From positions 11,569-75,568 of the forward strand of contig PFUG01000420.1 of NCBI GenBank assembly GCA_002789955.1: a stretch of 64,000 nt of DNA, in the 5' to 3' direction. Made by a program: the position numbers and the translations under genes. This document shows, piece by piece, positions 11,183 through 64,000 of the stretch. A model generated the notes under the pieces. The model searched no databases, was not told the DNA's origin, and saw nothing but the letters and a program-made list of their open reading frames with translations. This DNA is from Deltaproteobacteria bacterium CG_4_9_14_3_um_filter_63_12. GTDB taxonomy: Bacteria > Myxococcota_A > Bradymonadia > UBA4248 > UM-FILTER-63-12. The first letter of the stretch is position 1. Each line of letters begins with the position of its first letter.

Positions 11183-11832
11183 GAAACCAACGAGGACGTT
11201 GGGTCTGGATGGCAATGGCCGCCCTTGCGCTCCTGTTCCCGAGTGTTGCGTTTGCCCAGAGCGCGGATCAGATCCTGGCGAGCTTCGATGACGAACCGAC
11301 CGTTCTCGAAGTTCAGGCTGCGGCATTGACGTATTCGGGGCTTGATCCGGATCGCGTCGAGGGCTGGAACACCCGAGCGAACCTCGCCAATCTCCTTCCG
11401 GAGCGCGCCTCGTATACGATCCGCTACCAGGACCAAGATCGGACCATGGAGCAGCTCACGGATGACTACAACGAGGCCGGCACCACGCTGGGAGCGCAGG
11501 ATCGTCGGGAGCTGCGTACGCAGACCGAGACCCGCCACGAAGGCCGCGTGGAGTGGGACTTCTCGAAGCTGATCTTCAACCCCGAGGTGCTCCGTGTCGC
11601 CCGTGAAGTCGGCAGCCAAACCAAGCTGCGTGAGGACGTGCTGACGACCGTCACGAAGATCTTTTACGAGCGTCGTCGCGCTCAGATCGACATCATCATG
11701 AATCCGCCGTCGGACGCGGCGGACAAGCTGCGCAAAGAACTGCGGGTCCAGGAGCTGACCGCCGACATCGACGCGATGACGGGATCGTGGTTCAGCAGCG
11801 AGCTGAAGGCTGCTGGAAAGAACCCGTACTGA
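11179..11832 (+). CDS. Secreted hypothetical protein
   Basis: Overlaps the upstream stop by 4 nt (ATGA). Signal peptide MRNQRGRWVWMAMAALALLFPSVAFAQ. A charged helical body with no recognisable domain. Confidence 0.4.
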   Translation: MRNQRGRWVWMAMAALALLFPSVAFAQSADQILASFDDEPTVLEVQAAALTYSGLDPDRVEGWNTRANLANLLPERASYTIRYQDQDRTMEQLTDDYNEAGTTLGAQDRRELRTQTETRHEGRVEWDFSKLIFNPEVLRVAREVGSQTKLREDVLTTVTKIFYERRRAQIDIIMNPPSDAADKLRKELRVQELTADIDAMTGSWFSSELKAAGKNPY

Positions 11833-23137: not shown

Positions 23138-23430
23138 TATCGACCTCACCAAGCAACAGCTTGGCATTCTACGAGGCAGCACGACGCCGCCGTTTGGTGT
23201 ACAGGACAAAAGGCCTTCGAACCACCGAAAGCCGCGTCGTCACCCCTTCTCGAGCTGAGTCCAGCGCAGTATCCGAGGCTGGGGATCGCGAGTCAAGCAG
23301 ACCCAGAATCCCCGCTGGGTTGCAGGACTCCAAGCCAGCCGCTTCGGGGCTTGTCCGGCGTCGGTCCGAAGCCACGCCACCCTCGCCACCGCCGCTCGCG
23401 TGGGAGATTTGGGCGACGCGCTCGTGGCTG

Positions 23431-25630: not shown

Positions 25631-26144
25631 CGGTCACCAATTCCTTACAGCACTTGTCCCAATGGACGCTGTGGCGGGTGCGGCCGAGTGTATCCAATGC
25701 CCCGGCAAGGTGCAACGCAGCCGCTCGCTCGCAGCGAGCTTGAAGTGCTGGCCAACGAAATTGCACTTTCTACCAGTGACCGTGCGGACAATGTGGCTCG
25801 CGCTCTCCCCGATGAGCCCGACCAGTTGCGCGACTGCGAACTCAGGCGGGGATGGAGATTCAACGTGTGTCTGGCAATAGATGCCCTCGACGACCTCGCT
25901 CTCCTTCCGTCTTGCCAGACTGCGAAAGACCTCTCCAAGTCCGCGTCGTCTCTACGAAAAGGCACTCCTCCCTGCACTTCGATGAACACGATGTGGTACT
26001 TGCACTCCCACCTACTGTGGGACAGACTCTTCCTGTCGTCCATGTGGACTCTCGGAATTCTTTTGCTGGCCGTTGACCGCCAGACAACGAAATCGCCGTG
26101 GTTGGCCGCTGAGAGATGTCAGTTACCTTTGAGAGTTCGTTCAC

Positions 26145-45588: not shown

Positions 45589-46806
45589 TCAGGGACACGG
45601 ATTCTCGACCCCAGGGCTCGGCTCTGAGTCGACGGCGTCACCCACCTCCACCCGGACCGCCCCGTCGGGACAACGTGCCAGCGATCGTCCGTCCCCGACG
45701 TCAGCCGAGATCTGGTCCGCGAGAAGCCCCATCGCAGCGGGATCCGCGGGGGTTCCCCAGGCGATGACGTCAAAGACCTCGCCTGAGCATCCCACCAAAC
45801 GAAACGCTCCGCTGTCGTTGCTGGCGTCCACGGTCTCGAGAACGAGGTCGTTGCTGAGGCTCGAGTCTTCGGCAATCAAGAAGACCCCTTCAGCGTCGAG
45901 CGTTCGGCCCACATCGGTGAGGACATTCCAAAGCCCAACTTCCTCATCCCAGCTCTCGAGCCAGACTCCCTCCAACGAGAGCTTGGGCACGCCTCGAAGC
46001 TCGACGAACGCCGTGGAGCCCTCGTCAGCCCCTGGTGGATCGTAGAGCACCTCTCCGAGCCACACCTCTCCAGCCACGGCGAGCGTCTCGCAGGGTGTGC
46101 ACGCCGGCGAATCCGAGATGCGCTCGTTCGCCGCACCAGGCGACGCCGCATCCACGACAAAGTCAGAGGCATTGTCACCGCTATCTATGACGTCGAGAGC
46201 ACCAGGACAGCGAGCCAACGCGAGATCAGCTCCGCTCCCCGCGACTGGGGACCCCTCCCCCCTGAAAGTCTCCTCTGGCCCGAAAGTGCCGTAGCCAACC
46301 GAATCTTGCCTTCGTCCGTGGCAATCGAAGAGTTGGATGTTTCCGTTGGGCGCCGGAAAGCCTTCGACGCCCAGCAGCTGGTCTGCCGTGCTCTCGAGGG
46401 AGTCGCCAAAGGCCCCCACGAACAATCCAGAGGAGTCGAGTTCCCCACTGAGAACCACCTCAAATCGTCGAATCGAGTCACCTGACGTCGCCAGCAGACG
46501 ATATCCGTCCAGCGCCTCGCCGGGTTGTCCCAAGAGCTCGACGAAGTCGGGGCGCGAAGCACCCGCATAGCGAAACTCGTTGATCACTACAGGCCCTGCG
46601 GAACAGACCGGGCTGCTCGTTGTTTCCCCTCCGCTGCCATCCAACACAAGAGTGTCGGTAACCCGGACACAGGCATCGTTCACGCAGATCTCGTCGGGCT
46701 GACAGCGACAGAGGTTCACCGAGTCAATGGTCACGTCCGAGCCACACCCGGGTCCAAAGACCAAAGAGAGAAGAAGCGCCCAGAGAATTCTTCGGAAACT
46801 GTTCAT
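45589..46806 (-). CDS. Lipoprotein with two lamin-tail (LTD) domains
   Basis: Start at the ATG at 46806 gives MNSFRRILWALLLSLVFGPGCG (lipobox). LTD signatures VVINEFRYAG...PDFVELLG and VWLGEVLYDPPGADEGSTAFVELRG. Confidence 0.5.
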   Translation of the reverse strand: MNSFRRILWALLLSLVFGPGCGSDVTIDSVNLCRCQPDEICVNDACVRVTDTLVLDGSGGETTSSPVCSAGPVVINEFRYAGASRPDFVELLGQPGEALDGYRLLATSGDSIRRFEVVLSGELDSSGLFVGAFGDSLESTADQLLGVEGFPAPNGNIQLFDCHGRRQDSVGYGTFGPEETFRGEGSPVAGSGADLALARCPGALDVIDSGDNASDFVVDAASPGAANERISDSPACTPCETLAVAGEVWLGEVLYDPPGADEGSTAFVELRGVPKLSLEGVWLESWDEEVGLWNVLTDVGRTLDAEGVFLIAEDSSLSNDLVLETVDASNDSGAFRLVGCSGEVFDVIAWGTPADPAAMGLLADQISADVGDGRSLARCPDGAVRVEVGDAVDSEPSPGVENPCP

Positions 46807-46980
46807 AGGCTCGTTCTTAGTCGTGTTGAAACGCACAGAGACAGAGGTCAGGTCGCAAACCTGATGTCCATTTTGACGATCGACATCTCGAGTCGCGGAA
46901 TGTCCTCGTCCTCGCTGGGTGAGCCAAAGAAAACAGGGTGAACTGGAGTCCACCCTGTTCGAGATTCGCAAGCCGTGGGG

Positions 46981-48396
46981 TTATTGGCATCCTGTTGAGA
47001 ACAAGGCGCCATTGACGCATGTCCCCGGGGACTGTTTGCGGGGATCCGCCACGACGTCAGTGATCAGAGAGGTGAACGGCACAAACGCCGTCCCAGTGAG
47101 GTCGGGGCTTCGCTGCAAAGATTGGTCTGAGGCGTCCGCATTCGAAGCCCACGTCGCGGTCCCGAGGGTGAAGGCCACCCCCTGTGCGTCGAAGATCGCG
47201 ACGGTGCTGCCGCCGTTGACGAGCCCGAGGGAGTCGACGACCACCAGCGCGTCGGCGAACTCAGGGCAACTCGGTGTTCCGCCACCAAAGAAAACCAAGG
47301 CTTGTTTCGGCCCAAGACACTGATCGGTGGTGAACGTGTACTTGCTTGCCCCCGCGACACCCAGCCGCACGCCTTTGAGGTTGACGTCCGACATCCCGAC
47401 GTTGACGACCTCGACGAATTCGTCCTTGGTCGACTCTTGCACGCCGTCGCAGTTGGCGTCGCCTCCGGCCTGTCCAGGTGTGGTGTTGCTGGCCATCGGA
47501 TCGAAAAGGACTTCATTGAGCACGAGGTCGTCGAGGGAGGGCGGATCGCAGGGTGGAGGGACGTCCACAGGCACATCGGTCACATCGGTCGCATCGGCGA
47601 CATCTGAGCTTACGTCGTCCCCGTCCACCGGGCTTGCGGGCATGCAGCCCTTGATGAGCTCCTCGCCGTTGATGCATTTGCCGGGGGAGGACCGAGTGGT
47701 TGAGACCTCGACGTGTTTCAGAAAGTCCCCAGTAAAGTCTGGGGCTCGCGTCCATGAGCTGTTTCCACTGCTCAAGGAAGGGACATTGACCACATCGAGC
47801 TGCGTGCCTGACAGGACCAAGCTGACCTGCGTACCGCTGTTGCTCAGAGAGAGTGACTTGGAGGAGACCAACGCTTGAGTGCCACCAAGGACGGTGCAGG
47901 CTGCTGTCCCACCAGAGTACAAAACCAACCCACGGGAAGGCTCCAAACACCCACTCAGCGTGTGCTTGGTCGTCCCATTGACCTGAACCTCGATTCCATC
48001 CAGGGACAAGACTCCGCTCGAGTTGTTGACGATCTCGATGAATTCATCCTGGAGATTGCTGGCGAGCCCATCGCAATTGGAATCGTCTGCGCCATTGAGC
48101 GGCGACGTGTGCACCTCATTGATGCGCAGTTCAGACTCCGTCACAGGCGGGACGCCCTGACAGTTCATGGCATCGACTCCATCAGGCAAATCGCCTGCTG
48201 CAGTGCCGTCAAATGCGGGGCGTTCTTCGCACTTGTTGAACACGCAGCGCATATTTATCGGACACTCCTCGTCCTCCGTGCACTGTCGTTGCGTGTCATC
48301 GCAACTCGTGAGCAACGTCGGCGTTGCGAGGAGGGCGAGAAGGAGCGAAAGGACGAGGGGGGATACCCTGTGCGCTTTGGTTTTGCCGTACTCTGT
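46981..48396 (-). CDS. Lipoprotein with two lamin-tail (LTD) domains (tandem paralog)
   Basis: ATG at 48396 with GAGGAG 6 nt upstream. MTEYGKTKAHRVSPLVLSLLLALLATPTLLTSC (lipobox). LRINEVHTSP...DEFIEIVN and LVLNEVLFDP...DEFVEVVN. Confidence 0.5.
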   Translation of the reverse strand, partial: TEYGKTKAHRVSPLVLSLLLALLATPTLLTSCDDTQRQCTEDEECPINMRCVFNKCEERPAFDGTAAGDLPDGVDAMNCQGVPPVTESELRINEVHTSPLNGADDSNCDGLASNLQDEFIEIVNNSSGVLSLDGIEVQVNGTTKHTLSGCLEPSRGLVLYSGGTAACTVLGGTQALVSSKSLSLSNSGTQVSLVLSGTQLDVVNVPSLSSGNSSWTRAPDFTGDFLKHVEVSTTRSSPGKCINGEELIKGCMPASPVDGDDVSSDVADATDVTDVPVDVPPPCDPPSLDDLVLNEVLFDPMASNTTPGQAGGDANCDGVQESTKDEFVEVVNVGMSDVNLKGVRLGVAGASKYTFTTDQCLGPKQALVFFGGGTPSCPEFADALVVVDSLGLVNGGSTVAIFDAQGVAFTLGTATWASNADASDQSLQRSPDLTGTAFVPFTSLITDVVADPRKQSPGTCVNGALFSTGCQ

Positions 48397-48606
48397 CATT
48401 TGGGTCTCCTCGAGCCCTGATTGCTTATGTCTTTCGCGAAACAAGTGTCGGCTTTGGTCGCGCCAACTTGCTCATCGGGTCACGAACAAAGGAGGTCTCA
48501 ATCCTCATGTTCGAGCCCAAACTGCGGGGCAGTGTAGCGGTGGGCACAACCCGGATCAATCTCCCCCTGAGAGGGAGCCGAGAACACCCCGAGGCCCCAA
48601 CTCCCT

Positions 48607-50081: not shown

Positions 50082-52889
50082 CTATGGGGTCACGACGCTC
50101 GTCAGAACCTGCCCAAAAGGCGCAACGAGCAGCGCCCGCCCACTGTCGATCGACAGCCCTCCGACGAGGTTCCCACGCAAGTCAATGAGGGTCTCCCCGA
50201 CCGTCGTCCCGAGATCGGGGCTGAAGACGATGATGCCATTCGGAGCGGCTGCGATCACATTCTGGCCATCGACCTGCACCATTGTCAGATTCGCGGTGGA
50301 GCCCGTCTCGATCTTGGTCCACGTCGTCCCGCCGTCTTCGCTCTTGTACATGGCTCCAGCGTCCCCAACAGCGATGCCAACGCTCCCATCCCAGTCCCAA
50401 GCCTTGAGGCTCGCGATCGGGGTTTCGAGGGTACCATTGAACACGGGTGTATCGGGCGTCAGTCCATCGGTCCAGGTCGCGCCGTCGTCCGTGGACTGGT
50501 AGATCAAACTGCCAGCCCCGGCGCCATCCGTTAGGATGAGCACGTTCGTCCCGTCGTATTCGAGTTCGCGAATGCTGTGATTGGTCCCAAGAGGCAGCAG
50601 AACGGTTGCCCAGGTCCCCCCACTTTTCCACGAGCCTGTGGTGTCGGCATCCCCCCTGACGACCTCGCCATTGTTCGTCCCCATCATCGCCTCTACACCG
50701 GCCAGGACTACTGTGGTGCCCTCTCCAGTCTTGCCGGTGATGTTACACATGGAGCCAGAAGCGCAGTTGATCGGCACGCTGTACATGGTGCCATCGGTGC
50801 CAATGGTCAAGACAATGACCGACACCGAGATCGCGTTCGAACCGACCACCAACGCGGTGGGCTCGACGCCGGCCTCGAACGCCGTGTCGTTGTAGGTGTC
50901 CAGAAGACCAATGTTGCCAGGCTGCCAGGAGAGGCCGGCGTCCGAGGTCCGCAAAATCTCTTCGGTCTCACCAGCTATGATCCCCACGTCGCCCGAGAGT
51001 GCGGGACGGTGCAGCTTCACATTGCGCGTGGTGGCTGTGGTGTCGGCGAGATTCCAAGTAACTCCGTCGTCCGCAGACCGCAGCAGAAACTCTTCCGGCC
51101 CGCCCCCGCTCAGGAGCAAGTCCCCTTGCTCGTAGAGCCAAGTCAGCTCATTGCGAGCATAGGTCAAACCCCTCTTTGTGTAGGTCTGCGGGGTCCCATC
51201 GACGGTCTGCATGACGCGCCCAAATCCAGCATTGCTCCCATAGAGCAATGCTTCGCTGCCGATCAAATGCACTCCCACCAGCGAGTCGCCTTCGATGATG
51301 CTCACGGGATCAGCGGCAGTCCCAACGCTTCGTCGGAAGACGAATTGAGAACCGGAAAGCAGGACGATCGAGTCGCCGCTCACTGAGATGCTGGTCCAGT
51401 CCAGAGCCGGAACGTCTGCGACGGGTGTCCAAGAGAGCCCCTCGTTCTCCGTGTAGGCCAAAAACCCTGTACCTCCGGCGTAAATTCGGGCGCCATCGGC
51501 AACGAGGAAGCGGACCGTGCCGTTCGCTGGCTTGGTGGGCGTGGTGATCAAGTCGCCCGCGTTGTCGGATCGCAAGATGTTTCCACTCCCAGAGTCCGGA
51601 CCCGCCATGAGGATGAACTGCCCTTCGACCAACACGGTCTCGAGAAGTGCGCCGTTGACCGACGACGAGAGGTCAGTCCAGATCGCTCCAGCGTCGGTGC
51701 TGCGGAGGAACACACCGTGTCCAACCATGACGAAGAGGTCCCCGTCCCCAGCGGCCGCAAGCGGCGTCCCCACACCCAGCGGGAGAAGGACGAGCTGCCA
51801 AGTCAAACCTTTGTCGGTGGAGCGAACGACGCTGCCCGTCTCATCGATGGCGACCACCACATTGCTGCCGTTGTTGCTGACGTGAATGACCTTGCCCGTG
51901 AGCGGCGTGGGAATGGGGTACCAAGTGCTGCCGTCATCCTCACTCCGATACACGAGACCGCCGCTGGAACCGAGGTAGCCGATCCCGTTGGCGGCGAAGT
52001 TGGCGGTCGTGAAGGGGTAATAAGAATCCGTCCAACACTCACCGAGGGCACAGACCTTCTCGCAGCCATCCGCCCACTGCCCATTGGCGTCACGCCGACC
52101 TGGCTGACAAGCGACGATGGCACAGTAGCTCCCACCGCAATGCGACACCTCCACACCGGCGAGAGCTGTGCAGTCGATGCCGCATGTCGCGCCACAGATG
52201 CCATCGTCGTAGGGCTGCTCACAGCCGTCCGCAGGGTCCCCGTCACAATCCAACCAGCCCCAGTCACACACACTTATGGCACAGGTTTGACCCGTACATT
52301 GGGCCGATGAGACGTTGGAGAGACTGGTGCAGTCCAAGCACGCCCCCGCTACTCCACAGACTGTGGGTCCGGACGCCGCTTCGCAGCCGTTCTGCAAGTT
52401 CCCATCGCAGTCGATGCGCCCTGAGTTGCAATCCAGCACGCAAGCGCTCGCTGAACAGGCGCCTCCAAGCGAATTCGGTCGGTCCAAACAGCTCGTGCAC
52501 TCTGGACCGCAAGCATCGTCGGACTCTGGGTTCTCGCAACCGTCGGAGATCTCGCCGTTGCAGTTCGCGAATCCGTCGGAACATGCGCTGATTCCACACC
52601 CCCCCGCCACACAGGTGGCGTCGCCCACATGGCTCAGCGCGGTGCAGTCGGTGCAGGCCGCACCGCACGCCGCGGGATCGGAGTCCCCGCATTGGCTGGT
52701 CTCGGTTTCCTGAACATCCTCGGGTGTGTCCACTGTGACGTCTTCCACGACATCGGGGAGGCCAGTGCTCTGATCGAGACCCTCGATGGCCGCCGGGTCC
52801 TCCCCCAAGATGCAGCCCGAAAGCAGCGCCGAAGCAAACAGCAAAGCCGCGAGAGCTCGCGTGATTGAACGAATATCTCTGCTCCCCAT
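50082..52889 (-). CDS. Large surface lipoprotein with N-terminal cysteine-rich repeats and a multi-blade BNR/Asp-box beta-propeller region
   Basis: Signal + lipobox LLFASALLSGC. Four or five about 40-aa Cys-rich repeats (CG.SDPAACGAACTDCTAL...; ACVLDCNSGRIDCDGNLQNGCE...) resembling the Myxococcus cysteine-rich repeat. At least seven S-x-D-x-G-x-T-W motifs follow (YRSEDDGSTWYPI, VRSTDKGLTWQLV, LRSTDAGAIWTDL, YTENEGLSWTPV, LRSADDGVTWNL, YQSTDDGATWTDG, YKSEDGGTTWTKI). Confidence 0.55.
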   Translation of the reverse strand: MGSRDIRSITRALAALLFASALLSGCILGEDPAAIEGLDQSTGLPDVVEDVTVDTPEDVQETETSQCGDSDPAACGAACTDCTALSHVGDATCVAGGCGISACSDGFANCNGEISDGCENPESDDACGPECTSCLDRPNSLGGACSASACVLDCNSGRIDCDGNLQNGCEAASGPTVCGVAGACLDCTSLSNVSSAQCTGQTCAISVCDWGWLDCDGDPADGCEQPYDDGICGATCGIDCTALAGVEVSHCGGSYCAIVACQPGRRDANGQWADGCEKVCALGECWTDSYYPFTTANFAANGIGYLGSSGGLVYRSEDDGSTWYPIPTPLTGKVIHVSNNGSNVVVAIDETGSVVRSTDKGLTWQLVLLPLGVGTPLAAAGDGDLFVMVGHGVFLRSTDAGAIWTDLSSSVNGALLETVLVEGQFILMAGPDSGSGNILRSDNAGDLITTPTKPANGTVRFLVADGARIYAGGTGFLAYTENEGLSWTPVADVPALDWTSISVSGDSIVLLSGSQFVFRRSVGTAADPVSIIEGDSLVGVHLIGSEALLYGSNAGFGRVMQTVDGTPQTYTKRGLTYARNELTWLYEQGDLLLSGGGPEEFLLRSADDGVTWNLADTTATTRNVKLHRPALSGDVGIIAGETEEILRTSDAGLSWQPGNIGLLDTYNDTAFEAGVEPTALVVGSNAISVSVIVLTIGTDGTMYSVPINCASGSMCNITGKTGEGTTVVLAGVEAMMGTNNGEVVRGDADTTGSWKSGGTWATVLLPLGTNHSIRELEYDGTNVLILTDGAGAGSLIYQSTDDGATWTDGLTPDTPVFNGTLETPIASLKAWDWDGSVGIAVGDAGAMYKSEDGGTTWTKIETGSTANLTMVQVDGQNVIAAAPNGIIVFSPDLGTTVGETLIDLRGNLVGGLSIDSGRALLVAPFGQVLTSVVTP

Positions 52890-53822: not shown

Positions 53823-55037
53823 TCAGCGCGATACTCGACCGCTGAGCTCACGTACACGTCGTGCAGCGCTCTCGAGGAAGACCCAGAGCAGTTTGTTCGC
53901 CAGCACGGGATCTTGCTGGGTCAGCTTGTAGAAGTCCCCTTGGTCAATCCGGAGCAGAGTGACATTCTCTCTAGCAAACGCCGAGGCTGAGCGCGGCGAC
54001 TTGTCGACCAAGGCTAGCTCGCCAAAGTGCCCCCCCTCTGGGATGACCGTCAGCTCGACACCCTTGAGTGAGACGGTCACTGCGCCCTCGGCTACGACGT
54101 AGAGGCAGTTGCCGGCTGTCCCTTCGGCGATAATGCAGGCGCCAGCCTGGTGAGACTCTTCGTACACGATGCGCAGAACTCGGGTGAGTTCTTGGTCGTT
54201 GAGGAGCCGGAACAGCTCGATGTTCGAGAACAGCGTCAGTCTTGCGGTGAAATCGATGGAGTGAGTGTCCGACTCGGGGCTCTCGTCTATGGAGATCGCC
54301 ACGGCCGTCGCGTTGTCTGGAGCGCCGCGCTCCTTCGCCAGCTCGACCAACTTGTCGACTAGGTGGGCGGGCCCGTCGTAGTGGCCGATGCTGAGCATCT
54401 CCACGGGCTTGATCAGGTCGCTGACCCCATCCGAGCACAACAGGTAGATGTCGTTGGGGAGCAGATCGACGAACAACGTGTCCGTTTGCACCGTAGGCTC
54501 AGAGCCAATCGAACGGCTGATGATGTGCTTGTAGGGGAACTTGTCGTAGTCCTCGGGCTTTAGTTTGCCTGCGTTCACCAGCCGCTGAAAGAAGCTGTGG
54601 TCTTCTGTCAGCTGGTAGATCTTGTCACGGCGGATCAAATAGATCCGTGAGTCTCCGACGTGACCGATAAACCCGGACGAGTCGAGAAAGGCGAGCATGA
54701 CGCCTGTGGTGGCCATGCCCGTGAGCTCAGGTTCGTGCTGGGTCGTCCCGAAGATCTCGTTGCTGCACTGGTCGAAGATCCGCGCGATCTGTTGCAGGAT
54801 CTGGGTCCGCAGGTCTTTGTCTTTGGCCGATCGATAGTCGGCGAAGGTCTGAGCGAGGCGTGCCCCTTCATGGGAGATGATTCTCGCCGCGGTCGCGCTG
54901 GCGCGATCCCCGCCTGCCTTCCCGCCACAGCCGTCGCAGACCGCAAACACGCCGTTGTCTTGCAGAACGACGAAGGAGTCCTCATTTCGCTCTCGAACAC
55001 ACCCGACGTCTGTTCGATGCCAACTTCGGAAGTGCAT
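53823..55037 (-). CDS. PP2C-family Ser/Thr phosphatase fused to a C-terminal cyclic-nucleotide-binding domain
   Basis: PP2C motifs RERNEDSF, AVCDGCGGKAGGDRAS and LLCSDGVSD. The C-terminal about 120 aa carry GGHFGELALVDKSPRSASAFARENVTLLRI, a CAP-family cNMP-binding beta-roll with the phosphate-binding cassette. Start chosen at the ATG at 55037 to avoid overlap with the upstream cyclase gene. Confidence 0.7.
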   Translation of the reverse strand: MHFRSWHRTDVGCVRERNEDSFVVLQDNGVFAVCDGCGGKAGGDRASATAARIISHEGARLAQTFADYRSAKDKDLRTQILQQIARIFDQCSNEIFGTTQHEPELTGMATTGVMLAFLDSSGFIGHVGDSRIYLIRRDKIYQLTEDHSFFQRLVNAGKLKPEDYDKFPYKHIISRSIGSEPTVQTDTLFVDLLPNDIYLLCSDGVSDLIKPVEMLSIGHYDGPAHLVDKLVELAKERGAPDNATAVAISIDESPESDTHSIDFTARLTLFSNIELFRLLNDQELTRVLRIVYEESHQAGACIIAEGTAGNCLYVVAEGAVTVSLKGVELTVIPEGGHFGELALVDKSPRSASAFARENVTLLRIDQGDFYKLTQQDPVLANKLLWVFLESAARRVRELSGRVSR

Positions 55038-55068
55038 GTCTTCTCCCCAATCGAGTTCGGTGGGCGCC

Positions 55069-56547
55069 TCAGTCTGAATCCGATTCCGTTTGGTGAGCCA
55101 CCAAGGGGTCAACACGACCCGCCCGACCTGCACCCAAAGGACGGAAGATCATGATGGGTCGGCTCACGTTCTTCAACGTTCTACGCCCGACCCGTTCCAA
55201 CTCCAGATGCTCTCGAACCCGCTCCGCTGTTGACTCACTCAGGAGTATATCCCCTTCTTTGGCGAGTCCAGCGACTCGTGCGGCTATGTTAGTCGTTGGC
55301 CCCGTGGCGGTGTACGTATACCGCTCTCCCGTTAGCCCCACGAAGCGATTGAGACCGACGAAGGCTTTGCCACTGTTGATGCCGATATTGACCGACACCG
55401 GCTGCTCGCCTTCCTCCAGCTCGGCGTTGATATTGGCTCCTCCTTCCAGGATCTCCAGCGCTGCTTCGACCGCATCGAGCGCATGCCCCACCGGGGCGTT
55501 CTCTTGGAAAATCACCATGAGCCCGTCGCCGGCGGTCTCGTTGACCTGCCCTCGATGGCGGTGAATCACTTCGAGGAAGCGCGAGAAATAACGTTCGAGG
55601 ATTCTCCCCAGAGACTCCCCTTCGACGATCTCGCTCATTCGCGTATAGCCACCAAGATCCAGGAACATGACGCTGACGTCGCACTCTTTGCGCTGCAGAC
55701 TGCTGGCGTCAGGGTTGCGTTCGAGCTCCCTGCGGACGTTCTCTGGCACGAACTTGGCGAACATGTCGGTCACCTCCATCAACTCCTTCTGGAGGAGGAC
55801 GGTCTGGCTAAACGCCACGGTTCGTCGGCGGTAGAGGTAGAACGTGTAGAGGAGGAGGAATCCCAAAAGGACGCTCACGCCGATCACCGCGAACATGACC
55901 GAGTCCGACTTCTTCAGGAGATCGGCGTAGACCATGTCGATGGCCAAAACGCCCTTAACCTCTCCCTCCGCATCGTAGACCGGCGCGTAACCCGTAACCA
56001 GCACACCCCATGGAGGATCCGGCTCGGGGATCATCCGGGCTGAACTGTGCTCGAGACCAAGGAGCATGACCTCGTGAAACTGGCGCGCATGATAGGGATC
56101 GCCAGGCAGAGTAGCGACCTCGTCGCTGTCCAGCACTCCGTTCCCGTCGCGGTCGAGGCTGAAGGGCTCTGCGTCGACAAGGTACTCCCAGAGGTCTCCA
56201 GGTCCTACGTAGCGCATCGTGTAGACCCAAGTGAAACCCGGGGAGGTCGAGCGGATGCGGGACAACGTCGATTGGATACGGTGAAATTCGGGCTTGCTCA
56301 TGTCGGAGCGGTCGGTGATGGCCTCCAGGTCCTCCCCTCGAACCTGGCTTGCTCCCAGCAACGCAGCGGTCCGCAGCTGCTGATCGGCCTCGCGGATCAG
56401 CACATCGTTGGTCAGGGTGATGATCCAGACGTCGAGAGCACCCAAGACCACCGCGATCACCACACCGGCAAGAACAACAGGCAGCCATCGGCGTGTCGAA
56501 TGCCTCGAGACCGTGGACCTTGCCGTTTCCGCTTCGTTCGGCATCAA
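55069..56547 (-). CDS. Membrane-anchored class III adenylate/guanylate cyclase with a periplasmic sensor domain
   Basis: TM1 (LPVVLAGVVIAVVLGAL), about 170-aa extracytoplasmic segment, TM2 (VMFAVIGVSVLLGFLLLYTFYLY). CHD catalytic domain with VMFLDLGGYT (metal Asp), ETAGDGLMVIF, GINSGKAFVG and TGPTTNIAARV. Confidence 0.75.
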   Translation of the reverse strand: MMPNEAETARSTVSRHSTRRWLPVVLAGVVIAVVLGALDVWIITLTNDVLIREADQQLRTAALLGASQVRGEDLEAITDRSDMSKPEFHRIQSTLSRIRSTSPGFTWVYTMRYVGPGDLWEYLVDAEPFSLDRDGNGVLDSDEVATLPGDPYHARQFHEVMLLGLEHSSARMIPEPDPPWGVLVTGYAPVYDAEGEVKGVLAIDMVYADLLKKSDSVMFAVIGVSVLLGFLLLYTFYLYRRRTVAFSQTVLLQKELMEVTDMFAKFVPENVRRELERNPDASSLQRKECDVSVMFLDLGGYTRMSEIVEGESLGRILERYFSRFLEVIHRHRGQVNETAGDGLMVIFQENAPVGHALDAVEAALEILEGGANINAELEEGEQPVSVNIGINSGKAFVGLNRFVGLTGERYTYTATGPTTNIAARVAGLAKEGDILLSESTAERVREHLELERVGRRTLKNVSRPIMIFRPLGAGRAGRVDPLVAHQTESDSD

Positions 56548-57251: not shown

Positions 57252-58979
57252 TCATCTGGGACCACGTCGCTTCTTCCTCGTATCCCGGGATTGGAATGCC
57301 TCGAGGGCCTCGATGAGTGTGTCGTGCTCAACGGCCATGGGCCGCAGACGCTCGGCGCGGGGCGCGCGATCCGATTCGATGTCAGAGCGGAACTCTACGG
57401 GTTCAGACTCCCTTGTACACCAGCGGTAGATCTTCAGCTCGTCCTCGTCCCAACGGTAGAGTCCATAGGTGAGCGGTGACCGACAGTGGGGATCGTGCCG
57501 CTCACGACGTTCGGGAGATATCCAAGCTCCAGTGTTCACATAGAAGCGCGGCGGATCTCGCTTGAGTTGATGAAACTCTGGGTAGTGTGAGTGCCCCATC
57601 ACCACATAACGAACATCGATCAGGCGGTGGATTTGTTCGGCGGCTTGAAGGAGTTTTGGTGATACTGAAGTCGACAGTCGCCCTTCCGAGAACGACGCCA
57701 CCAGTGCCGTGGTGCCGAACCACGCAAAGATCGTGAGAAAACCTATGGCGAGGAGCATCAGCAGCCGAACACCACTGCTGAAAAGTCCGGACCCAAAGCC
57801 ACTCAAGACATCGGCGAAGACCCCCACCGCGAGGATCCACAGCACTACCGAACCGATCGCCAAACCCAGCAGGTATTTGTCGAGCGCCGTCACTTGAATC
57901 GTTCGCCAAAGAGACTGCTCGATCGGCAATCGCCGGCTTCGACTGACCTCCTGCAGCGCTTTTACGGGAATCTTGTAGTGGACGGCCTCAACTTCGAGGA
58001 GTCGATCGTGCTCGTCCGTCAGCGCCTGCGACGGAGCATTTTGCTGAACGTCCCGCGTATAGTTCCAAACTCGGCTGAACAACGATCCATAGAGGAACAC
58101 GACCTTCGCGACGTTCCGCGCCCCCTGGTCGCGCAGCCAATGCACGTAATCGAGCAGGGTCCAGTTGTCCTTGTCGTGGCTTTGAAAGCCTGTGTATTGA
58201 TTCACGAAGTAACGGATGATGAGGTGCGACAACGGCATCGCGATCTGGCTCTCTCGCTCCACCATCAGCGGCCTCAGACGACGGTCAAAGCTCGAAAAGT
58301 CGTCGTACTGGTTCCCGTGCTCGATGTAGAGCCGACCAGGGATGTGCAAAAACCATTGATGAAAAGTGACTCGATTGACGAAGTCCTCTTCGTTCACGCC
58401 TTCGACGCGCTCGCCGCCGAAGTACGACTCCGTCAACAGCTCGACAAAACGCCCCTGCACCGAGGGCCAGAAGAACTCGACGTCGTGGTTCCCATACAGC
58501 ATTTCGAGGCGATTCCCCTTCGCCACGAAATCTGCGAGGAACGTAAAGAGCCGCTTATGACGCTCCGCGATGTGTTCCAGCTTCCAAACACACTTTGCGG
58601 CACTGTTGTCCAAACCGAATCTGAGCTCGTCGTCGGAGTACTCGAACTCTGGATTGGACGCGATCTCCTTGCGGGAGGGCATGAAGGTCACGGCGAGGAA
58701 ATCGATGAAGTCCCCGTTGATCACGAGCCGCCAGGGCCGATCGGCGACGCGGTGATTGCCGTGGTACTCGAGGAATGCACACAACTCGCGATCCAACGAG
58801 TCCGCCCGTTTGACGTATTCGATCCGGTCGAAGTTCTTGGAGTGCTCACCGACGTGATGGTCACTGCAAATCAGCACAGACCAGGGCTCTGCTGAGCCAG
58901 TCTGCACCTCGCCTGCACTCTGCTTACTCTTCCGAATTTCTCGCAGGGTCTTGACCATCCGTGTCCATCTTCGTCCCAA
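57252..58979 (-). CDS. Calcineurin-like metallophosphoesterase with an inserted transmembrane hairpin
   Basis: Phosphoesterase motifs ICSDHHVG (DxH), INGDFIDF (GDxxD), YGNHD (GNHD/E) and VVMGHSH (GHxH). Two or three hydrophobic helices (LGLAIGSVVLWILAVGVFADVL; LLMLLAIGFLTIFAWFGTTALVA) interrupt the fold before the last His motif. Confidence 0.55.
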   Translation of the reverse strand: MGRRWTRMVKTLREIRKSKQSAGEVQTGSAEPWSVLICSDHHVGEHSKNFDRIEYVKRADSLDRELCAFLEYHGNHRVADRPWRLVINGDFIDFLAVTFMPSRKEIASNPEFEYSDDELRFGLDNSAAKCVWKLEHIAERHKRLFTFLADFVAKGNRLEMLYGNHDVEFFWPSVQGRFVELLTESYFGGERVEGVNEEDFVNRVTFHQWFLHIPGRLYIEHGNQYDDFSSFDRRLRPLMVERESQIAMPLSHLIIRYFVNQYTGFQSHDKDNWTLLDYVHWLRDQGARNVAKVVFLYGSLFSRVWNYTRDVQQNAPSQALTDEHDRLLEVEAVHYKIPVKALQEVSRSRRLPIEQSLWRTIQVTALDKYLLGLAIGSVVLWILAVGVFADVLSGFGSGLFSSGVRLLMLLAIGFLTIFAWFGTTALVASFSEGRLSTSVSPKLLQAAEQIHRLIDVRYVVMGHSHYPEFHQLKRDPPRFYVNTGAWISPERRERHDPHCRSPLTYGLYRWDEDELKIYRWCTRESEPVEFRSDIESDRAPRAERLRPMAVEHDTLIEALEAFQSRDTRKKRRGPR

Positions 58980-58998: not shown

Positions 58999-60750
58999 TC
59001 AATCGATGCCGAGCTGATCGCGGGTGAAGAACGCGTCCTCGCGGCCATCGTAACGAGCCCGCTGAGGCAACTCGAACAAAGCGAGAACCGCCTCGTATCC
59101 GTCCTCTTCGCCGAACAGTCTGGACAAACGACGGCTGACGCCGACCAAGGATGGGAAGTCGGCCGCATACGGCGTCTCGATGAACCCGAGCCTGAAGGCC
59201 TTCTCGCGTACGGCTGGTAAGGGCACGACCGACACCTCTTTCAGGTCCTCATTCGGCCAGACGCCCATCGCATGCAGCTCCCGTGCGATCCAGATCACTT
59301 CGTAGGTGAGGTTGAAGGCGCCCAGATGTTGCCAAAGCTGCCCGATGACAACGTCCGCGCTCTGCTGTGCAAAAGCCTGTACTCCCTCGTCTTTGAGCTC
59401 CTTAATCGCGCGCCGGAAAAGGAGGAAGTAGTGGAGGTTTCCGAACACCTCCGGGCGACCACCAAGTCCTCCCTTGAACAGCGCCTCCAAGACCGAATCG
59501 ATGCTCTTGCGGCTCTTGAACGCGTTGACAAAGAATCCCATCTGGTCGAGCAAGCCAAAAGCTTCGCCGCCACGGGCGACGTTTAGCCTTCCTTGATGGC
59601 GAAACAGGGAGACGGCGAGACAGGACAGCCTGAAGAGCTCGAAGCTGGGATCTTCCGCATACTTTTCGGCGGTAAATCCGTAGCTCGCGGCGCTCAGCCG
59701 GCGCCCACCGGGACGTCCTCGCCAAAATGCCCTCAGCGCCGCTAGATTCTGCGCCACCAACTCCTCGTCCGGACGGAGCTGTGCGAGCCGAGATGCGAGG
59801 GCGGGGGCGGGCTCACCAAAGGGATCCACGTCCTCTTCCTCGTCCGCTTCCTGGAAGACCTCGCTGATGAGACGCAACGGGAGGTCGTCGCTTCCTGGCG
59901 CAATGGGCTGAACCAGAACCTGAACGGTCTCCACCCCCGGCTCGATCACCACACGAGGCTCGGCGAAGGAAGCGTGCGCGTGGGCTCTTGGCGCAGCCTG
60001 GGCCGCACCAGCTACGGGGGATGGCGCTGACTGCATCTCAACGGGGGCCTCGACCGCGCGAGGCGTCACGCCGGGGGCAATGAATTCGGGCTCAATAGAG
60101 TCCTCGCCGAACTCTGGCTCCTCGACAGGCTGCGGAGCCTTGGCCGACTCCTCGTCCTCCCCTTTATCCTCGTCGTCTGCGTCGTCGCCGCCGTCCTCGT
60201 CTTCCAAGATCTCATCGACATCAATGGTCTTGATGTAGTTCATGGCCTCTTCGCCCAGGGCACTTAGGCCCCAGCGAATCCCGATCATCTTGATGTGCTC
60301 GCTGGCTTGCAGCCAAGCCATCCAGGCACGGAAGTTCACAAGGGTGATGTACTCGCCTGGGTAGACGTAGCTGGTGATGAACCGATAGAGCTCGTTCGTC
60401 GAGTAGAGGCGCTCCGCCAAGCCATCAATCACGTACTTGACCAAGATCTCGTTCATCTTGGCCAGGTGCCCAAAGAGGAGGCGATGGCGCTCCTCGGGCG
60501 TGCCGCATTCGTAAAGCCTCGTCATGAATTTTCCGAGGACGATGGACTTACCCTTGGTTGCCGTAATTCCGAGGAATTGCAGCATGTCACTCAAGCTATC
60601 CTTGTCGAAGAGGTCGTGCTCTCGAAGGTAGCGTTTGAAATCTTTGAAGTCGGGGTCGTGTCCGCTCACGTATTGGTGGATCGAGACGAGTTTCGGAATG
60701 AAATCCGCAGGTTTGCTGCTCGGCATTTGGACGAAATTGACGATCTGCAT
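58999..60750 (-). CDS. Hypothetical protein (two folded regions joined by an acidic disordered linker)
   Basis: 583 aa with no recognisable motif. A central Asp/Glu-rich tract (EDEDGGDDADDEDKGEDEE) and Pro/Ala-rich linker separate an about 170-aa N-terminal domain from an about 300-aa C-terminal domain. Confidence 0.35.
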   Translation of the reverse strand: MQIVNFVQMPSSKPADFIPKLVSIHQYVSGHDPDFKDFKRYLREHDLFDKDSLSDMLQFLGITATKGKSIVLGKFMTRLYECGTPEERHRLLFGHLAKMNEILVKYVIDGLAERLYSTNELYRFITSYVYPGEYITLVNFRAWMAWLQASEHIKMIGIRWGLSALGEEAMNYIKTIDVDEILEDEDGGDDADDEDKGEDEESAKAPQPVEEPEFGEDSIEPEFIAPGVTPRAVEAPVEMQSAPSPVAGAAQAAPRAHAHASFAEPRVVIEPGVETVQVLVQPIAPGSDDLPLRLISEVFQEADEEEDVDPFGEPAPALASRLAQLRPDEELVAQNLAALRAFWRGRPGGRRLSAASYGFTAEKYAEDPSFELFRLSCLAVSLFRHQGRLNVARGGEAFGLLDQMGFFVNAFKSRKSIDSVLEALFKGGLGGRPEVFGNLHYFLLFRRAIKELKDEGVQAFAQQSADVVIGQLWQHLGAFNLTYEVIWIARELHAMGVWPNEDLKEVSVVPLPAVREKAFRLGFIETPYAADFPSLVGVSRRLSRLFGEEDGYEAVLALFELPQRARYDGREDAFFTRDQLGID

Positions 60751-60883
60751 GGCGGCCTTTCGCTCCTCGAAGAAAATGAACTTTTGAGGGCCGAATCGAG
60801 TCAGGATTTCGAACCCACGTCAAGCGTCGAAACCGATGACGAGACTTCGGTGGTGCTGTGACTCCACACATACCCCGCTACTA

Positions 60884-60922
60884 AAAAAGGCGCACCCAGT
60901 TCTGGGTGCGCCTTTGTTGTTT
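60884..60922 (-). terminator. Rho-independent terminator downstream of the multi-DsbA gene (bidirectional architecture)
   Basis: Plus strand ctaaaaaa-GGCGCACCCAG-ttct-GGGTGCGCC-tttgttgttt. On the minus strand the stem is followed by TTTTTT, and it lies 15-50 nt downstream of the stop at 60937. Confidence 0.7.
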
Positions 60923-60936
60923 CGAATCGAACTTGG

Positions 60937-63639
60937 CTACTTCGCGGCGGCCAGGGCGGCGTCGATCTCGGCCTTGAAGGCCTCGAATGGCTGCGCACCA
61001 ACGAACTTCTTGCCGTTGATCAGGAAACTCGGAGTTCCAGAGATCCCAGCGCCTTTGGCCTGAGCGCCGTCGCTCTGGATCGTGGCTTTGAACTTTCCGC
61101 TGTCGAGAGCGGCGCGGAACTTGACCATATCGAGACCCAACTGCCCTGCGTAGGCCTCGAGATTCTCCCGCTTGATGGCTCTTTGGTTGGCGAAGAGGAT
61201 GTCGTGGTATTCCCAGAACTTGCCCTGCTCGTGCGCGGCGAGTGCGGCCTCTGCGGCCAAGGGGGCATCCTCGTGGAATTCAAGAGGCATCTGCTTGAAG
61301 ACGATCTTGACGTCGTTCGGGTAGGACTCGTGGATCTGTTTGAAGGTGGGAAGGACCTTTGAGCAGAAGGGGCATTGGAAGTCACTGAACTCGATGATCG
61401 TCACCTTGGCACTCGCTGGTCCCTTGATCGGCGAGCCTTTGATATCGACTTCGACGGGGGCCGGGGCTTGAGTCTTCTCGCTGGAGATGATCGTCTCGTA
61501 GAGCTTGTCCTTGGCGACGCCCTTCGCGAGGTAGTCTTGGGCAGTCTTGTACTCGCGGTCCAGAGCCGCCTGGAAAGACGCCAGCGGCTGTGCTCCCGAG
61601 AAGCGAGTCCCATTGATGAAGAAGTGAGGGGTTCCCCGAACGCCAACCTTGCCAGCGGCGGCCTTGTCGGCCTCGATCACCTTGTCCAGCTCTGCATTGT
61701 CGAGGTCTGCCTCGAACTTGGCCATGTTGAGCTGCAGTTGCTGCGCATAGGAGACCAAGTTATCGCGTCCGAGCGCCTTCTGATTCTTGAACAACATGTC
61801 GTGGTACTCCCAGAACTTCCCTTGTTTGTTCGCCGCGACAGCTGCCCTCGCGGCCAGTGGGGCGCTCTTGTGGAACTCCAGCGGGAAATGCTTGAAGACG
61901 ATCTTGACCTTGCCAGGATTCTTCTCGAGGAGCTCCTTCAAAGTCTCCGCTCCACGGCTGCAGAAGGGACATTCGAAGTCACTGAACTCAACGATAGTGA
62001 CCGGAGCATTCTTGTCGCCAATGACTGGGCTGTCGCCCACGACCACCAAATGGCGACCATCGTCTTCGGGTGCCTCTGCGGCCTGTGGCGGTGCGGCTTC
62101 CTTCGGCGCGCTCAGGACCAACGCCTTGTAGAGATTTTCGCCAGTCAGGCCTTTGGCCTTCGACAGGGCATCGGCTCGCTTGATCTCCTCATCAATGATC
62201 TTCTTGAAGTTCTCGGTGGGCTGCGCCCCAACGAACTTGCGTCCGTTGATCAAGAAACTCGGCGTTCCGGTGATTCCGAACTTGCGACCATCGGCCAAAT
62301 GGGTCGCGATCGTGGTTTCGTACTTTTTGGAGTCCAAGGCCGCTCTGAACTTGGCCATGTTCAAGCCGAGCTGCTCTGCGTACTTCTCCAAGTCCGCCCG
62401 TTGGATGGCCTTCTGGTTGGCGAAGAGCAGGTCGTGGTACTGCCAGAACTTGCCCTGCTCGTGGGCGGCCAGCGCGGCTTGTGCGGCGAGCGGCGCGTCC
62501 TTGTGGAAGTCTAGGGGGAACATCGCGAAGGCGACGCGGACGTCGTTCGGATAGGCCTTGAGGAGCTCCTCGACGGTCGGATTGACCTTGCCGCAGAAGG
62601 GGCATTGGAAATCACTGAATGCGAGGATCGTAACCTTGCCATTTGGCGCGCCTTTCACGGGCAGCGTCGAGATGTCGGGACCCACTCCACCTGCAGTCTC
62701 CTGCCCTGTGGGCAGCGCTGCGGACGGCTGGGGCTGTTCGTTTCCGCCACCGGCCTCCACAACCTCAGGACGTCCACCGCGATCGGCGGCGACTGCATCT
62801 TCAGCAAGGGACGGCCCCGTCTTGATCCCATCGGCGAGGCTGCGGTTGGCCCACACGGCGTAGCTGTAATAGCCATTGGCGCTCTCGAGGAGGTCGTTGG
62901 ACTTGGAGAGTTCCTCGTCGATGATCTGCTTCACCGAGGGGTAGGAGACGCCCTGCTTGAAGGAAACCTTGCGGCCGTTGACGAAGATCGATGGCGTCGA
63001 ACGCAGACCCAATCCCTCGGCGAGTTGCGTATCGCGCTCGAGCGCGGCCTCGGCTTCCTTGGAGTTCATGTCGGCGAGGAACTTCTTGTCGTCGAGGTTG
63101 AGGTCTTTGGCGTAGCCGACCAACTTGTCACTCTTCAAGAAACTGTTGAAATCGGCCTCGAACCCCTTCGCGTCCTTGCGGTCGGTGGGGAAGGCATCGA
63201 AGACCTTGTCGTGGAATTCCCAAAACTTCCCTTGCTGACCAGCGGCCCAAGCGGCCTGCGCAGCGAGGCGAGCATCCGGATGCGTCGAGAGCGGGAGGTT
63301 CTTCCAGATGATGCGGACGTTGTCCTCACCATATTCACGCATGGCGCTGTTGATGAGCGCATCAGAGGCGGCGCGACAGGCTGTGCACTGGAAATCGCCG
63401 AACTCGACAATTGTGACGGGGGCCTTGTGTGAGCCCTTGGCGGGAGAGCCCTTCACTGGAAGGAGCTCGGAATCCACCGTCACCTTTGCCAACTCGGCGC
63501 TCGAGTCGGGGACGCTCGTGATACTGGGCGGGGAGGCTATGAAGTAGCCGATGAGAAAGGCAACCACGGCGGTCACGACGAAGCCAACTACGGCGACGAT
63601 TGGACTTAACCGTTTCTCCTCTGGACCCTGATGTGCCAT
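60937..63639 (-). CDS. Membrane-anchored protein with four tandem DsbA-like thioredoxin-fold domains
   Basis: N-terminal TM anchor (IVAVVGFVVTAVVAFLIGYFI). Four about 200-aa repeats each contain a CxxC thioredoxin active site in the same context (VEFGDFQCTAC; LAFSDFQCPFC; VEFSDFECPFC; IEFSDFQCPFC). Each is followed by ...HKDAPLAA.AALAA..QGKFWEYHD..F and ...GTPSFLINGKKFVGAQP. Confidence 0.65.
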   Translation of the reverse strand: MAHQGPEEKRLSPIVAVVGFVVTAVVAFLIGYFIASPPSITSVPDSSAELAKVTVDSELLPVKGSPAKGSHKAPVTIVEFGDFQCTACRAASDALINSAMREYGEDNVRIIWKNLPLSTHPDARLAAQAAWAAGQQGKFWEFHDKVFDAFPTDRKDAKGFEADFNSFLKSDKLVGYAKDLNLDDKKFLADMNSKEAEAALERDTQLAEGLGLRSTPSIFVNGRKVSFKQGVSYPSVKQIIDEELSKSNDLLESANGYYSYAVWANRSLADGIKTGPSLAEDAVAADRGGRPEVVEAGGGNEQPQPSAALPTGQETAGGVGPDISTLPVKGAPNGKVTILAFSDFQCPFCGKVNPTVEELLKAYPNDVRVAFAMFPLDFHKDAPLAAQAALAAHEQGKFWQYHDLLFANQKAIQRADLEKYAEQLGLNMAKFRAALDSKKYETTIATHLADGRKFGITGTPSFLINGRKFVGAQPTENFKKIIDEEIKRADALSKAKGLTGENLYKALVLSAPKEAAPPQAAEAPEDDGRHLVVVGDSPVIGDKNAPVTIVEFSDFECPFCSRGAETLKELLEKNPGKVKIVFKHFPLEFHKSAPLAARAAVAANKQGKFWEYHDMLFKNQKALGRDNLVSYAQQLQLNMAKFEADLDNAELDKVIEADKAAAGKVGVRGTPHFFINGTRFSGAQPLASFQAALDREYKTAQDYLAKGVAKDKLYETIISSEKTQAPAPVEVDIKGSPIKGPASAKVTIIEFSDFQCPFCSKVLPTFKQIHESYPNDVKIVFKQMPLEFHEDAPLAAEAALAAHEQGKFWEYHDILFANQRAIKRENLEAYAGQLGLDMVKFRAALDSGKFKATIQSDGAQAKGAGISGTPSFLINGKKFVGAQPFEAFKAEIDAALAAAK

Positions 63640-64000
63640 GAAAACACTCCTCTCTTGTTTGTCCGCGAATTCCGCCGGACAGAATGATGGTTGGCCTCTC
63701 GCTACACGATATGGGTTGTGAACTCACTCGGTCGAGCGAGGACATCTCATGAAAAATGAACATTACTCGCTACAGAAACACGGGCCGGCTCGTGCTGAAC
63801 ACGCCGCTCGACGCACTCATCCGTACGCCTGAGTCGGCAGTCATCATGCCACGCAAGTTTCGGTCTCGAGAGCACACTCAGAAGTCATCGGGGGGGGCGG
63901 TAGAGCCTGCTGACAACGGACTTCGGATTGAGTGTGCAGTGGAGTATGCCCCTCTCGGACTCCTCCTCGGAGCCCCGTAGAGGCTGATGCTCCGTGCCGT

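Follow-up and report, generated by a model that had tools for sequence, protein, structure and literature searches.

A predicted membrane-anchored protein with four tandem DsbA-like modules from a Bradymonadia genome and its multi-DsbA family in Myxococcota

A gene in contig PFUG01000420.1 of Deltaproteobacteria bacterium CG_4_9_14_3_um_filter_63_12 (GCA_002789955.1) raises the question of what a single bacterial chain with four DsbA-like modules is and what it may do in the cell envelope. To our knowledge, the bacterial disulfide catalysts studied so far have one catalytic module per chain. DsbC, DsbG and ScsC present several active sites through non-covalent oligomerisation. The gene lies in a stretch of 64,000 nucleotides (nt) (positions 11,569–75,568 of the contig), hereafter the window, and encodes a protein of 900 amino acids (aa). 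A preliminary description, made from the sequence without database searches, had proposed four complete DsbA-like domains behind one membrane helix. Our analysis places the protein, as an ordinary member, in a large, Myxococcota-centred and apparently uncharacterised multi-DsbA family with two to seven modules per chain, and its individual feature is the CTAC motif found only in its diverging module 1. As to function, we suggest that it is probably an inner-membrane-tethered periplasmic chain of largely independent DsbA/TsdA/BdbD-type modules, that is, a multivalent thiol:disulfide oxidoreductase.

The four tandem modules proposed earlier were recovered, each with its own CxxC motif (CTAC, CPFC, CPFC and CPFC; Table 1). 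All four motifs are intact, not just one; they share the context F-[SG]-D-F-[QE]-C and contain all of the exactly eight cysteines of the protein. Scanned as a whole against Pfam, the protein matched Thioredoxin_4 (E = 1e-116) and DSBA (E = 1.7e-84) in four stretches each. The per-domain profile check suggested in the preliminary description gave 77.4, 108.3, 120.0 and 97.9 bits for modules 1 to 4 with Thioredoxin_4 (PF13462; cut-off 23.2) and 44.4, 96.5, 94.5 and 90.1 bits with DSBA (PF01323; cut-off 25.6). All four modules are thus above the gathering thresholds over the full profile, the Thioredoxin_4 matches spanning approximately profile positions 4–165 of 165. A fourfold pattern of this kind lies well outside what chance would produce. 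The match to Pfam Thioredoxin (PF00085) was weak and partial.

The predicted cis-Pro loops are S-T-P at residues 215–216 in module 1 and G-T-P at residues 459–460, 670–671 and 869–870 in modules 2, 3 and 4. The conserved block said to follow the active site in every repeat was found as G-T-P-x-F-x-I-N-G...G-A-Q-P in modules 2–4, whereas module 1 has STPSIFVNGRKVSF in its place and no GAQP. Based on the MAFFT alignment, module 1 is 35–42% identical to the other modules at the protein level, and its description as the diverged one agrees with this value as well as with its CTAC motif, its S-T-P loop and the missing GAQP. Modules 2–4, on the other hand, are not the close copies that they had been taken for: they are only 50–61% identical to each other as proteins, and the DNA of the module copies is 63–74% identical over a 300-nt core. 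Judged from these identities, they are old, diverged duplications.

Besides its putative cis-Pro loop of S-T-P type, module 1 contains about 15 inserted residues in its helical subdomain, together with a pair of connector helices. Connector helices are also present at the C-terminal side of module 2, which has the G-T-P loop, and in module 3. Module 3 is a canonical module of a second subtype, the pattern of which is apparent in comparison with two relatives (P0004 and P0020); its best PDB sequence matches are TsdA/CdDsbA and 3GYK. Module 4 forms the C-terminus of the protein without a connector and is 61% identical to module 2.

The full-length AlphaFold2 model, calculated with 87 aligned sequences, had a mean predicted local distance difference test score (pLDDT) of 87.2 and a predicted template modelling score (pTM) of 0.46, and modules 2–4 alone gave 93.1 and 0.56, respectively. 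The low-confidence segments were residues 1–12, 30–33, 35–53, 276–317 and 515–524, and the models have disordered linkers at 276–317 and 515–524. The pLDDT was about 90–98 over most of the module 1 core and above 90 in module 2. Each module is predicted as a strand, a helix, a strand, four to five helices, two strands and a long helix (pLDDT >90). These models assign the modules to the DsbA-like class, in which a thioredoxin fold is interrupted by an alpha-helical insertion. In the models, the CxxC motifs are located at the N-terminus of helix 1, with helix starts at residues 86, 347, 558 and 759. A Foldseek search of the PDB with single modules retrieved 3GYK (target TM-score 0.84–0.87), BdbD (0.84), TsdA/CdDsbA, ScsC and Wolbachia alpha-DsbA1, and a PDB sequence search returned the same set of relatives. 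Because the modules are confidently modelled and their mutual arrangement is undefined, the models suggest a flexibly linked chain, like beads on a string, without a fixed mutual arrangement.

The single N-terminal membrane helix proposed earlier is supported by a hydropathy of 2.0–2.65 across residues 10–35 and by an AlphaFold2 helix at residues 13–34. The N-terminus has no lipobox. Among 121 family proteins, the query included, 90 have a similar hydrophobic N-terminus and 15 a lipobox, so that a tether is found in 105 of the 121.

To assess the spread of this architecture, a search of 5.8 billion proteins was used, in which 3,607 of the 8,000 candidates scored were matches at E ≤ 1e-10. More than 100 clusters of about 850–900 aa cover 92–100% of the query at 38–63% identity. 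These relatives originate from Myxococcales, Polyangia, Bradymonadia and other Myxococcota metagenome-assembled genomes (MAGs) and bear generic names in their sources, such as "thioredoxin domain-containing protein", "protein-disulfide isomerase" or "DsbA family protein". Modules were counted with a hidden Markov model (HMM) built from the four modules of the window protein in a sample comprising the query and its 120 best relatives. Four modules were found in 107 of these 121 proteins, three in 5, five in 5, six in 2 and seven in 2. In addition, 1.84 billion representatives at 50% identity were searched exhaustively with HMMER, which yielded 4,986 matches at E ≤ 1e-30. The best 150 of these are almost all 500–1,200 aa long with more than 400 bits each, which indicates multi-module proteins.

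A scan of one genome per species revealed at least 486 stretches encoding a relative, mostly in Myxococcota, including the cultured genera Archangium, Corallococcus and Nannocystis, and modules were counted at 80 of these loci. Cultured Archangium gephyra, Corallococcus terminator and Pyxidicoccus encode versions with three modules, Polyangia MAGs and one Anaeromyxobacter MAG versions with four, and a seven-module version was found once among the 80 loci. Nannocystis and Vulgatibacter have two-module versions. The preliminary description had proposed a check for one-, two- and four-domain relatives; versions with two to seven modules were found, and four is the norm. Based on its collinear full-length homology and on the tandem Thioredoxin_4 modules after a predicted N-terminal anchor, the window protein can be assigned to this Myxococcota multi-DsbA family. 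Three-module relatives with 34–38% identity were also seen outside Myxococcota, in MAGs labelled Candidatus Omnitrophota/Omnitrophica (L069, L075 and L082), where they could reflect horizontal transfer or a binning error.

The statement that no tetra-DsbA had been described needs to be divided. No characterisation of a tandem or multi-domain DsbA, or of a Myxococcus or myxobacterial DsbA, was found in the literature searched, the coverage of which was incomplete, and in this experimental sense the statement stands. The architecture itself is not singular, since 106 of the 120 best relatives have four modules. Moreover, multi-DSBA-domain bacterial sequences, the same phenomenon, are mentioned in "An Atlas of the Thioredoxin Fold Class" (PMC2757866), in a one-sentence remark without taxonomy, four-to-seven-module forms or functional analysis.

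Across 87 aligned four-module proteins, CxxC, the His of P-L-x-F-H, T-P, N-G and G-A-x-P were essentially invariant in every module, as was the W/H of Q-G-K-F-W-x-x-H-D. Furthermore, a conserved Tyr is present in the helical connector after every module but the last. A census of 494 modules from the 121 proteins gave 428 CPFC and 45 CPYC motifs (473 CP[FY]C) and 482 GTP loops, which indicates that the catalytic residues are under strong constraint. About 10 modules lack a Cys, and CTAC occurs in the window protein only, whose modules 2–4 have the site standard for the family, D-F-[QE]-C-P-F-C.

Within the subclade formed by the window protein, P0005, P0007 and P0010, the modules are positionally orthologous, with 58–71% identity on the diagonal versus 35–54% off it, except for the module 2/4 pair, which is 61–65% identical across positions. 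The orthologous module 1 has lost its second cysteine in P0005 (CNAS) and P0007 (CPAS). Strict positional orthology throughout the family was rejected: with 43–59% of best matches on the diagonal it is weak, and it is clear only inside this subclade. This weakness argues for repeated remodelling of the array. Long exact internal repeats were observed in relatives with five to seven modules (P0004, 264 aa; P0003, 87 aa; P0002, 41 aa). They point either to module pairs duplicated in tandem very recently or to faulty assembly of the contigs concerned. Apart from possible mis-assembly of these contigs, such repeats suggest that module number changes by tandem duplication. A specialised origin of module 1 was also considered and rejected: a search with residues 1–275 found no separate module-1 family and matched only ordinary two-module family members at 33–44% identity.

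The protein cannot be counted among the equivalogs of E. coli-type DsbA, DsbC or DsbG. For E. coli-type DsbA it reached 49 bits with PRK10954 (cut-off 279) and 52 bits with NF047695 (cut-off 290), and the equivalog scores were 32 bits for DsbC (cut-off 215) and 58 bits for DsbG (cut-off 124). NF041057, the Rcas_1661 family of single-domain thioredoxin-like (seleno)lipoproteins (about 247 aa, cut-off 190 bits), was rejected as well: the 404 bits obtained arise by summing four stretches, single modules reach 69–121 bits, and the lipobox is missing.

Comparison with known systems places the modules closest to TsdA (also called CdDsbA) of Corynebacterium diphtheriae (PDB 4PWO, 4PWP, 7UNN and 7UNO), the best PDB sequence match (E ~5e-21), which has the same active-site context, E-F-S-D-F-E-C-P-F-C, and a DsbA-like fold at only about 30% identity per module. 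However, TsdA, from a Gram-positive actinobacterium, has a single catalytic module behind a long N-terminal extension, whereas the window protein, from a diderm lineage, has four modules linked in one chain by helical connectors. BdbD of Bacillus subtilis (3EU3) and Mt-DsbA are similar in Pfam family, fold, the Thr before cis-Pro and the N-terminal membrane anchor, and their partner is a separate DsbB/VKOR-type membrane protein. These are single-module proteins whose partner gene is often adjacent (bdbC-bdbD), while no partner gene was found nearby in the window. ScsC (Salmonella 4GXZ, Proteus 4XVW and Caulobacter 7RGV) resembles the window protein in its catalytic domain and in having several active sites per assembly. 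ScsC, which works with ScsB, is multivalent by non-covalent trimerisation via an N-terminal helix; the window protein is multivalent by gene-internal duplication and has neither a trimerisation stalk nor an ScsB neighbour.

Several thioredoxin-fold modules with more than one CxxC per polypeptide and secretory substrates are also known from eukaryotic PDI, ERp72 and ERdj5. In PDI, the modules are plain thioredoxin domains that lack the helical insert of DsbA, and they are combined with redox-inactive b/b' domains in a defined U-shape. The likeness to PDI would be one of functional analogy and not of architecture-level homology. Four DsbA-like domains (thioredoxin plus helical insert) in one chain are found in UGGT as TRXL1–4 (PMC8024514), but these lack catalytic cysteines and are intertwined in a rather rigid ring with the glucosyltransferase.

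Based on the above, we propose the following scheme for the multivalent oxidoreductase. The N-terminal helix would stay uncleaved as a signal-anchor and position the chain in the periplasm, with the modules joined by short helical connectors and flexible linkers. Each CPFC module would independently exchange disulfides with exported cysteine-containing proteins, which would make the chain a far-reaching multivalent foldase. On balance, the reaction would probably run towards oxidation, with an isomerase capacity as in TsdA, Mt-DsbA and BdbD, and the modules would be recycled by a quinone reductase of the DsbB/VKOR type whose gene lies at another place in the genome. Module 1 may serve as a substrate-holding or mixed-disulfide module beside the membrane; from its CTAC motif (CxxS in close relatives), its S-T-P loop and its extra helix we infer that it is probably no longer an ordinary oxidase module. 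The name of oxidase given in the preliminary description is plausible but not established, as the closest homologues with a characterised activity are oxidases in some cases (TsdA in vivo, BdbD) and isomerases/reductases in others (ScsC; CdDsbA/TsdA in vitro).

It is possible, although in our opinion not likely, that the protein is instead a dedicated disulfide isomerase/reductase like DsbC, ScsC or PDI, in which the covalent linking of modules replaces oligomerisation. Such a chain would present several active sites and avoid oxidation by DsbB, its CxxC motifs being kept reduced by a DsbD/ScsB/CcdA-type protein encoded elsewhere. Some observations weigh for this alternative, and part of them also against a net oxidase. 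By sequence as well as by fold, ScsC (all three structures named above) belongs to the nearest solved relatives, and CdDsbA, with the same EFSDFECPFC context, has isomerase/reductase activity in vitro (PMC4546943). The D-x-x-C-x-[FY]-C pattern, with Asp at -3, and the Thr before cis-Pro are also typical of the isomerases DsbC and DsbG (discussed for Mt-DsbA in PMC3853704), and a TlpA-like redoxin is encoded downstream in 8 of 83 related loci. Against the oxidoreductase scheme as drawn it also counts that no DsbB/VKOR/DsbD/CcdA-like gene was found in the window by a transmembrane/CxxC heuristic and Pfam searches of the membrane open reading frames (ORFs) and that none is a conserved neighbour in the 83 loci; an operon with a redox partner was rejected on the same grounds. 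In addition, a low pTM is no proof of flexibility, and the sequence alone cannot settle the direction of electron flow. On the other side, TsdA, a membrane-tethered oxidoreductase, can take the place of the oxidase MdbA in vivo (PMC9974433). BdbD and Mt-DsbA, too, belong to oxidase pathways. The missing gene for DsbD, ScsB or CcdA beside the gene, in the window and in relatives, speaks against an isomerase too, the TlpA-like neighbour is missing from the window and from most loci, and the chain has no oligomerisation or substrate-cleft domain: an N-terminal domain of the ScsC/DsbC type is not present, and residues 35–53 before module 1 are predicted to be disordered. Still, the lack of an oligomerisation domain and of a DsbD/ScsB neighbour is compatible with an isomerase-like function.

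A mainly non-catalytic holdase or misfolding sensor, comparable to the four TRXL domains of UGGT, seems very unlikely. UGGT is the only solved protein with multiple DsbA-like domains among the Foldseek matches, and in the closest relatives the second cysteine of module 1 is being lost. However, the UGGT match (root-mean-square deviation ~26 Å, TM-score 0.12–0.20, 12% identity) is a mere repeated-domain similarity, and the CxxC intact in all four modules, like the CP[FY]C retained in 473 of 494 family modules, would be unexpected for a non-catalytic scaffold. Finally, the four copies could be thought of as a mis-joined or collapsed tandem-repeat assembly, or the ORF as no real gene. Long exact repeats, whether recent duplications or assembly problems, are present in the relatives P0004 (264 aa) and P0003 (87 aa), but no evidence of this kind was found for the window protein, for which the suspicion can practically be dismissed, as can a recent repeat. 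The DNA of its copies differs at 26–37% of positions, too much for a collapsed repeat, which the preliminary description had named as the finding that would overturn it. Its longest exact internal peptide repeat is 12 aa, and Tandem Repeats Finder detected no array at module scale in the gene. The identical 900-aa protein, recorded on 11 contigs, is deposited under three NCBI accessions (OIP42534.1, PIV99832.1 and PJB38523.1) and labelled "hypothetical protein" of Deltaproteobacteria bacterium CG2_30_63_29. Moreover, orthologues at 60–65% identity retain the same four modules in the same order, and the G+C content at third codon positions (0.78) is typical for the genes of the window.

A widespread and conserved family with two to seven intact active sites per membrane-tethered chain would be a third design besides the single catalytic module and the non-covalent oligomer, and it bears on the folding of envelope and secreted proteins in organisms with large cysteine-rich secretomes. 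Myxobacteria have such secretomes, with many adhesins, toxins and lipoproteins. As a tentative idea, to which we give rather little weight, the tandem DsbA arrays could be the means by which Myxococcota oxidatively fold an unusually Cys-rich exported proteome, a bacterial counterpart of multi-site PDI built independently and from DsbA instead of thioredoxin modules. If so, a tethered flexible chain with two to seven active sites would act processively on one substrate, or disulfides would be handed from module to module across the periplasm. The number of modules would be tuned by tandem duplication, and the membrane-proximal module in the subclade of the window protein would have been turned into a CxxS/CTAC substrate-trapping module. 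The family is open to experiment: cultured Archangium and Corallococcus carry three-module orthologues, and Nannocystis and Vulgatibacter carry orthologues with two modules.

Table 1. Features of the four-module DsbA-like gene, its product and cysteine-rich neighbours (window coordinates)
Feature	Position	Strand	Residues	Remarks
Four-module DsbA-like gene, complete	60937..63639	(-)	900 aa	ATG start; stop codon 60937-60939
Shine-Dalgarno-like AGAGGAG	63647..63654	(-)		GGAG 7 nt before ATG at 63639; read from sequence
N-terminal hydrophobic helix, predicted signal-anchor	63538..63603	(-)	13-34	K/R N-terminal of helix
Module 1, diverged DsbA-like	62815..63483	(-)	53-275	CTAC at 63376-63387 (residue 85)
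Linker, ~42 aa, predicted disordered	62689..62814	(-)	276-317	Ala/Gly/Pro/Glu-rich; pLDDT <50
Module 2, canonical DsbA-like	62098..62688	(-)	318-514	CPFC at 62593-62604 (residue 346)
Module 3, canonical DsbA-like, second subtype	61474..62067	(-)	525-722	GTPHFFINGTRFSGAQP; CPFC at 61960-61971 (residue 557)
Module 4, canonical DsbA-like	60940..61470	(-)	724-900	CPFC at 61363-61374 (residue 756)
Intrinsic-terminator-like hairpin	60883..60915	(-)		13-bp GC-rich stem, 4-nt loop, then T6; 21 nt past stop codon
Cys-rich lipobox-type protein	50082-52889	(-)	935 aa	37 Cys (~4%); Sortilin/BNR repeats; ~8 kb away
Cys-rich lipobox-type protein	18806-23209	(-)	1,467 aa	56 Cys (~4%); no Pfam match; ~38 kb away

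With its own Shine-Dalgarno sequence and its own terminator, the four-DsbA gene looks like a separate transcription and translation unit. The terminator-like hairpin came from a hairpin scan, and the minus-strand T-run was read directly in the sequence. This hairpin is a near-perfect palindrome between the four-DsbA gene and the next gene, flanked by an A-run and, at its opposite end, a T-run, and looks like a bidirectional intrinsic terminator.

Neighbourhoods vary among relatives, and clustering of the neighbours in the 83 loci showed clade-specific synteny only, for example, an ABC transporter, RidA and RelA in Myxococcaceae. The preliminary description had connected the protein with Cys-rich surface lipoproteins encoded nearby. 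Both ORFs are real and Cys-rich (Table 1), but their proximity is the only support for a functional link; they lie about 8 and 38 kb off in other transcription units, and the neighbourhoods differ among relatives. The four-DsbA protein is probably a housekeeping envelope protein and not part of a local operon.

The redoxin gene mentioned above lies directly downstream on the same strand, with a median gap of ~116 nt, and encodes a TlpA/AhpC-TSA-type protein with WCAPC (for example, L004 3896–4459, L084 8564–9139 and L086 8969–9559). Several relatives have, about 100–180 nt upstream on the same strand, a small Cys-rich ORF of 158–184 aa (L001 9333–9845, L084 5423–5899 and L086 5267–5821) with a signal-peptide-like hydrophobic N-terminus and no Pfam match; an AEIGTC motif is common to two of these three. 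No counterpart is visible in the 360 nt remaining upstream in the window.

Downstream of the four-DsbA gene, the genes at 57252–58979 (-) (575 aa) and 58999–60750 (-) (583 aa) have no Pfam match. By eye, the former has metallophosphoesterase-like motifs (DHH, GDFIDF, GNHD and GHSH) and two hydrophobic segments, and the latter a long acidic, low-complexity middle region. Two adjoining genes at 45589–46971 (-) and 46981–48444 (-) encode lamin-tail domain (LTD) proteins with 15 and 17 cysteines, which are additional candidates for members of a Cys-rich secretome. At 53823–56547 (-), an adenylate/guanylate cyclase gene adjoins a gene for a PP2C phosphatase–cyclic-nucleotide-binding fusion, and the two could form a cyclic-nucleotide (cNMP) signalling pair. 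A short ORF at 25645–26043 (-), without a Pfam match, starts with SLSHSRWECKYHIVF; this start resembles the N-terminus of IS200/IS605 TnpA, and the ORF may represent a remnant.

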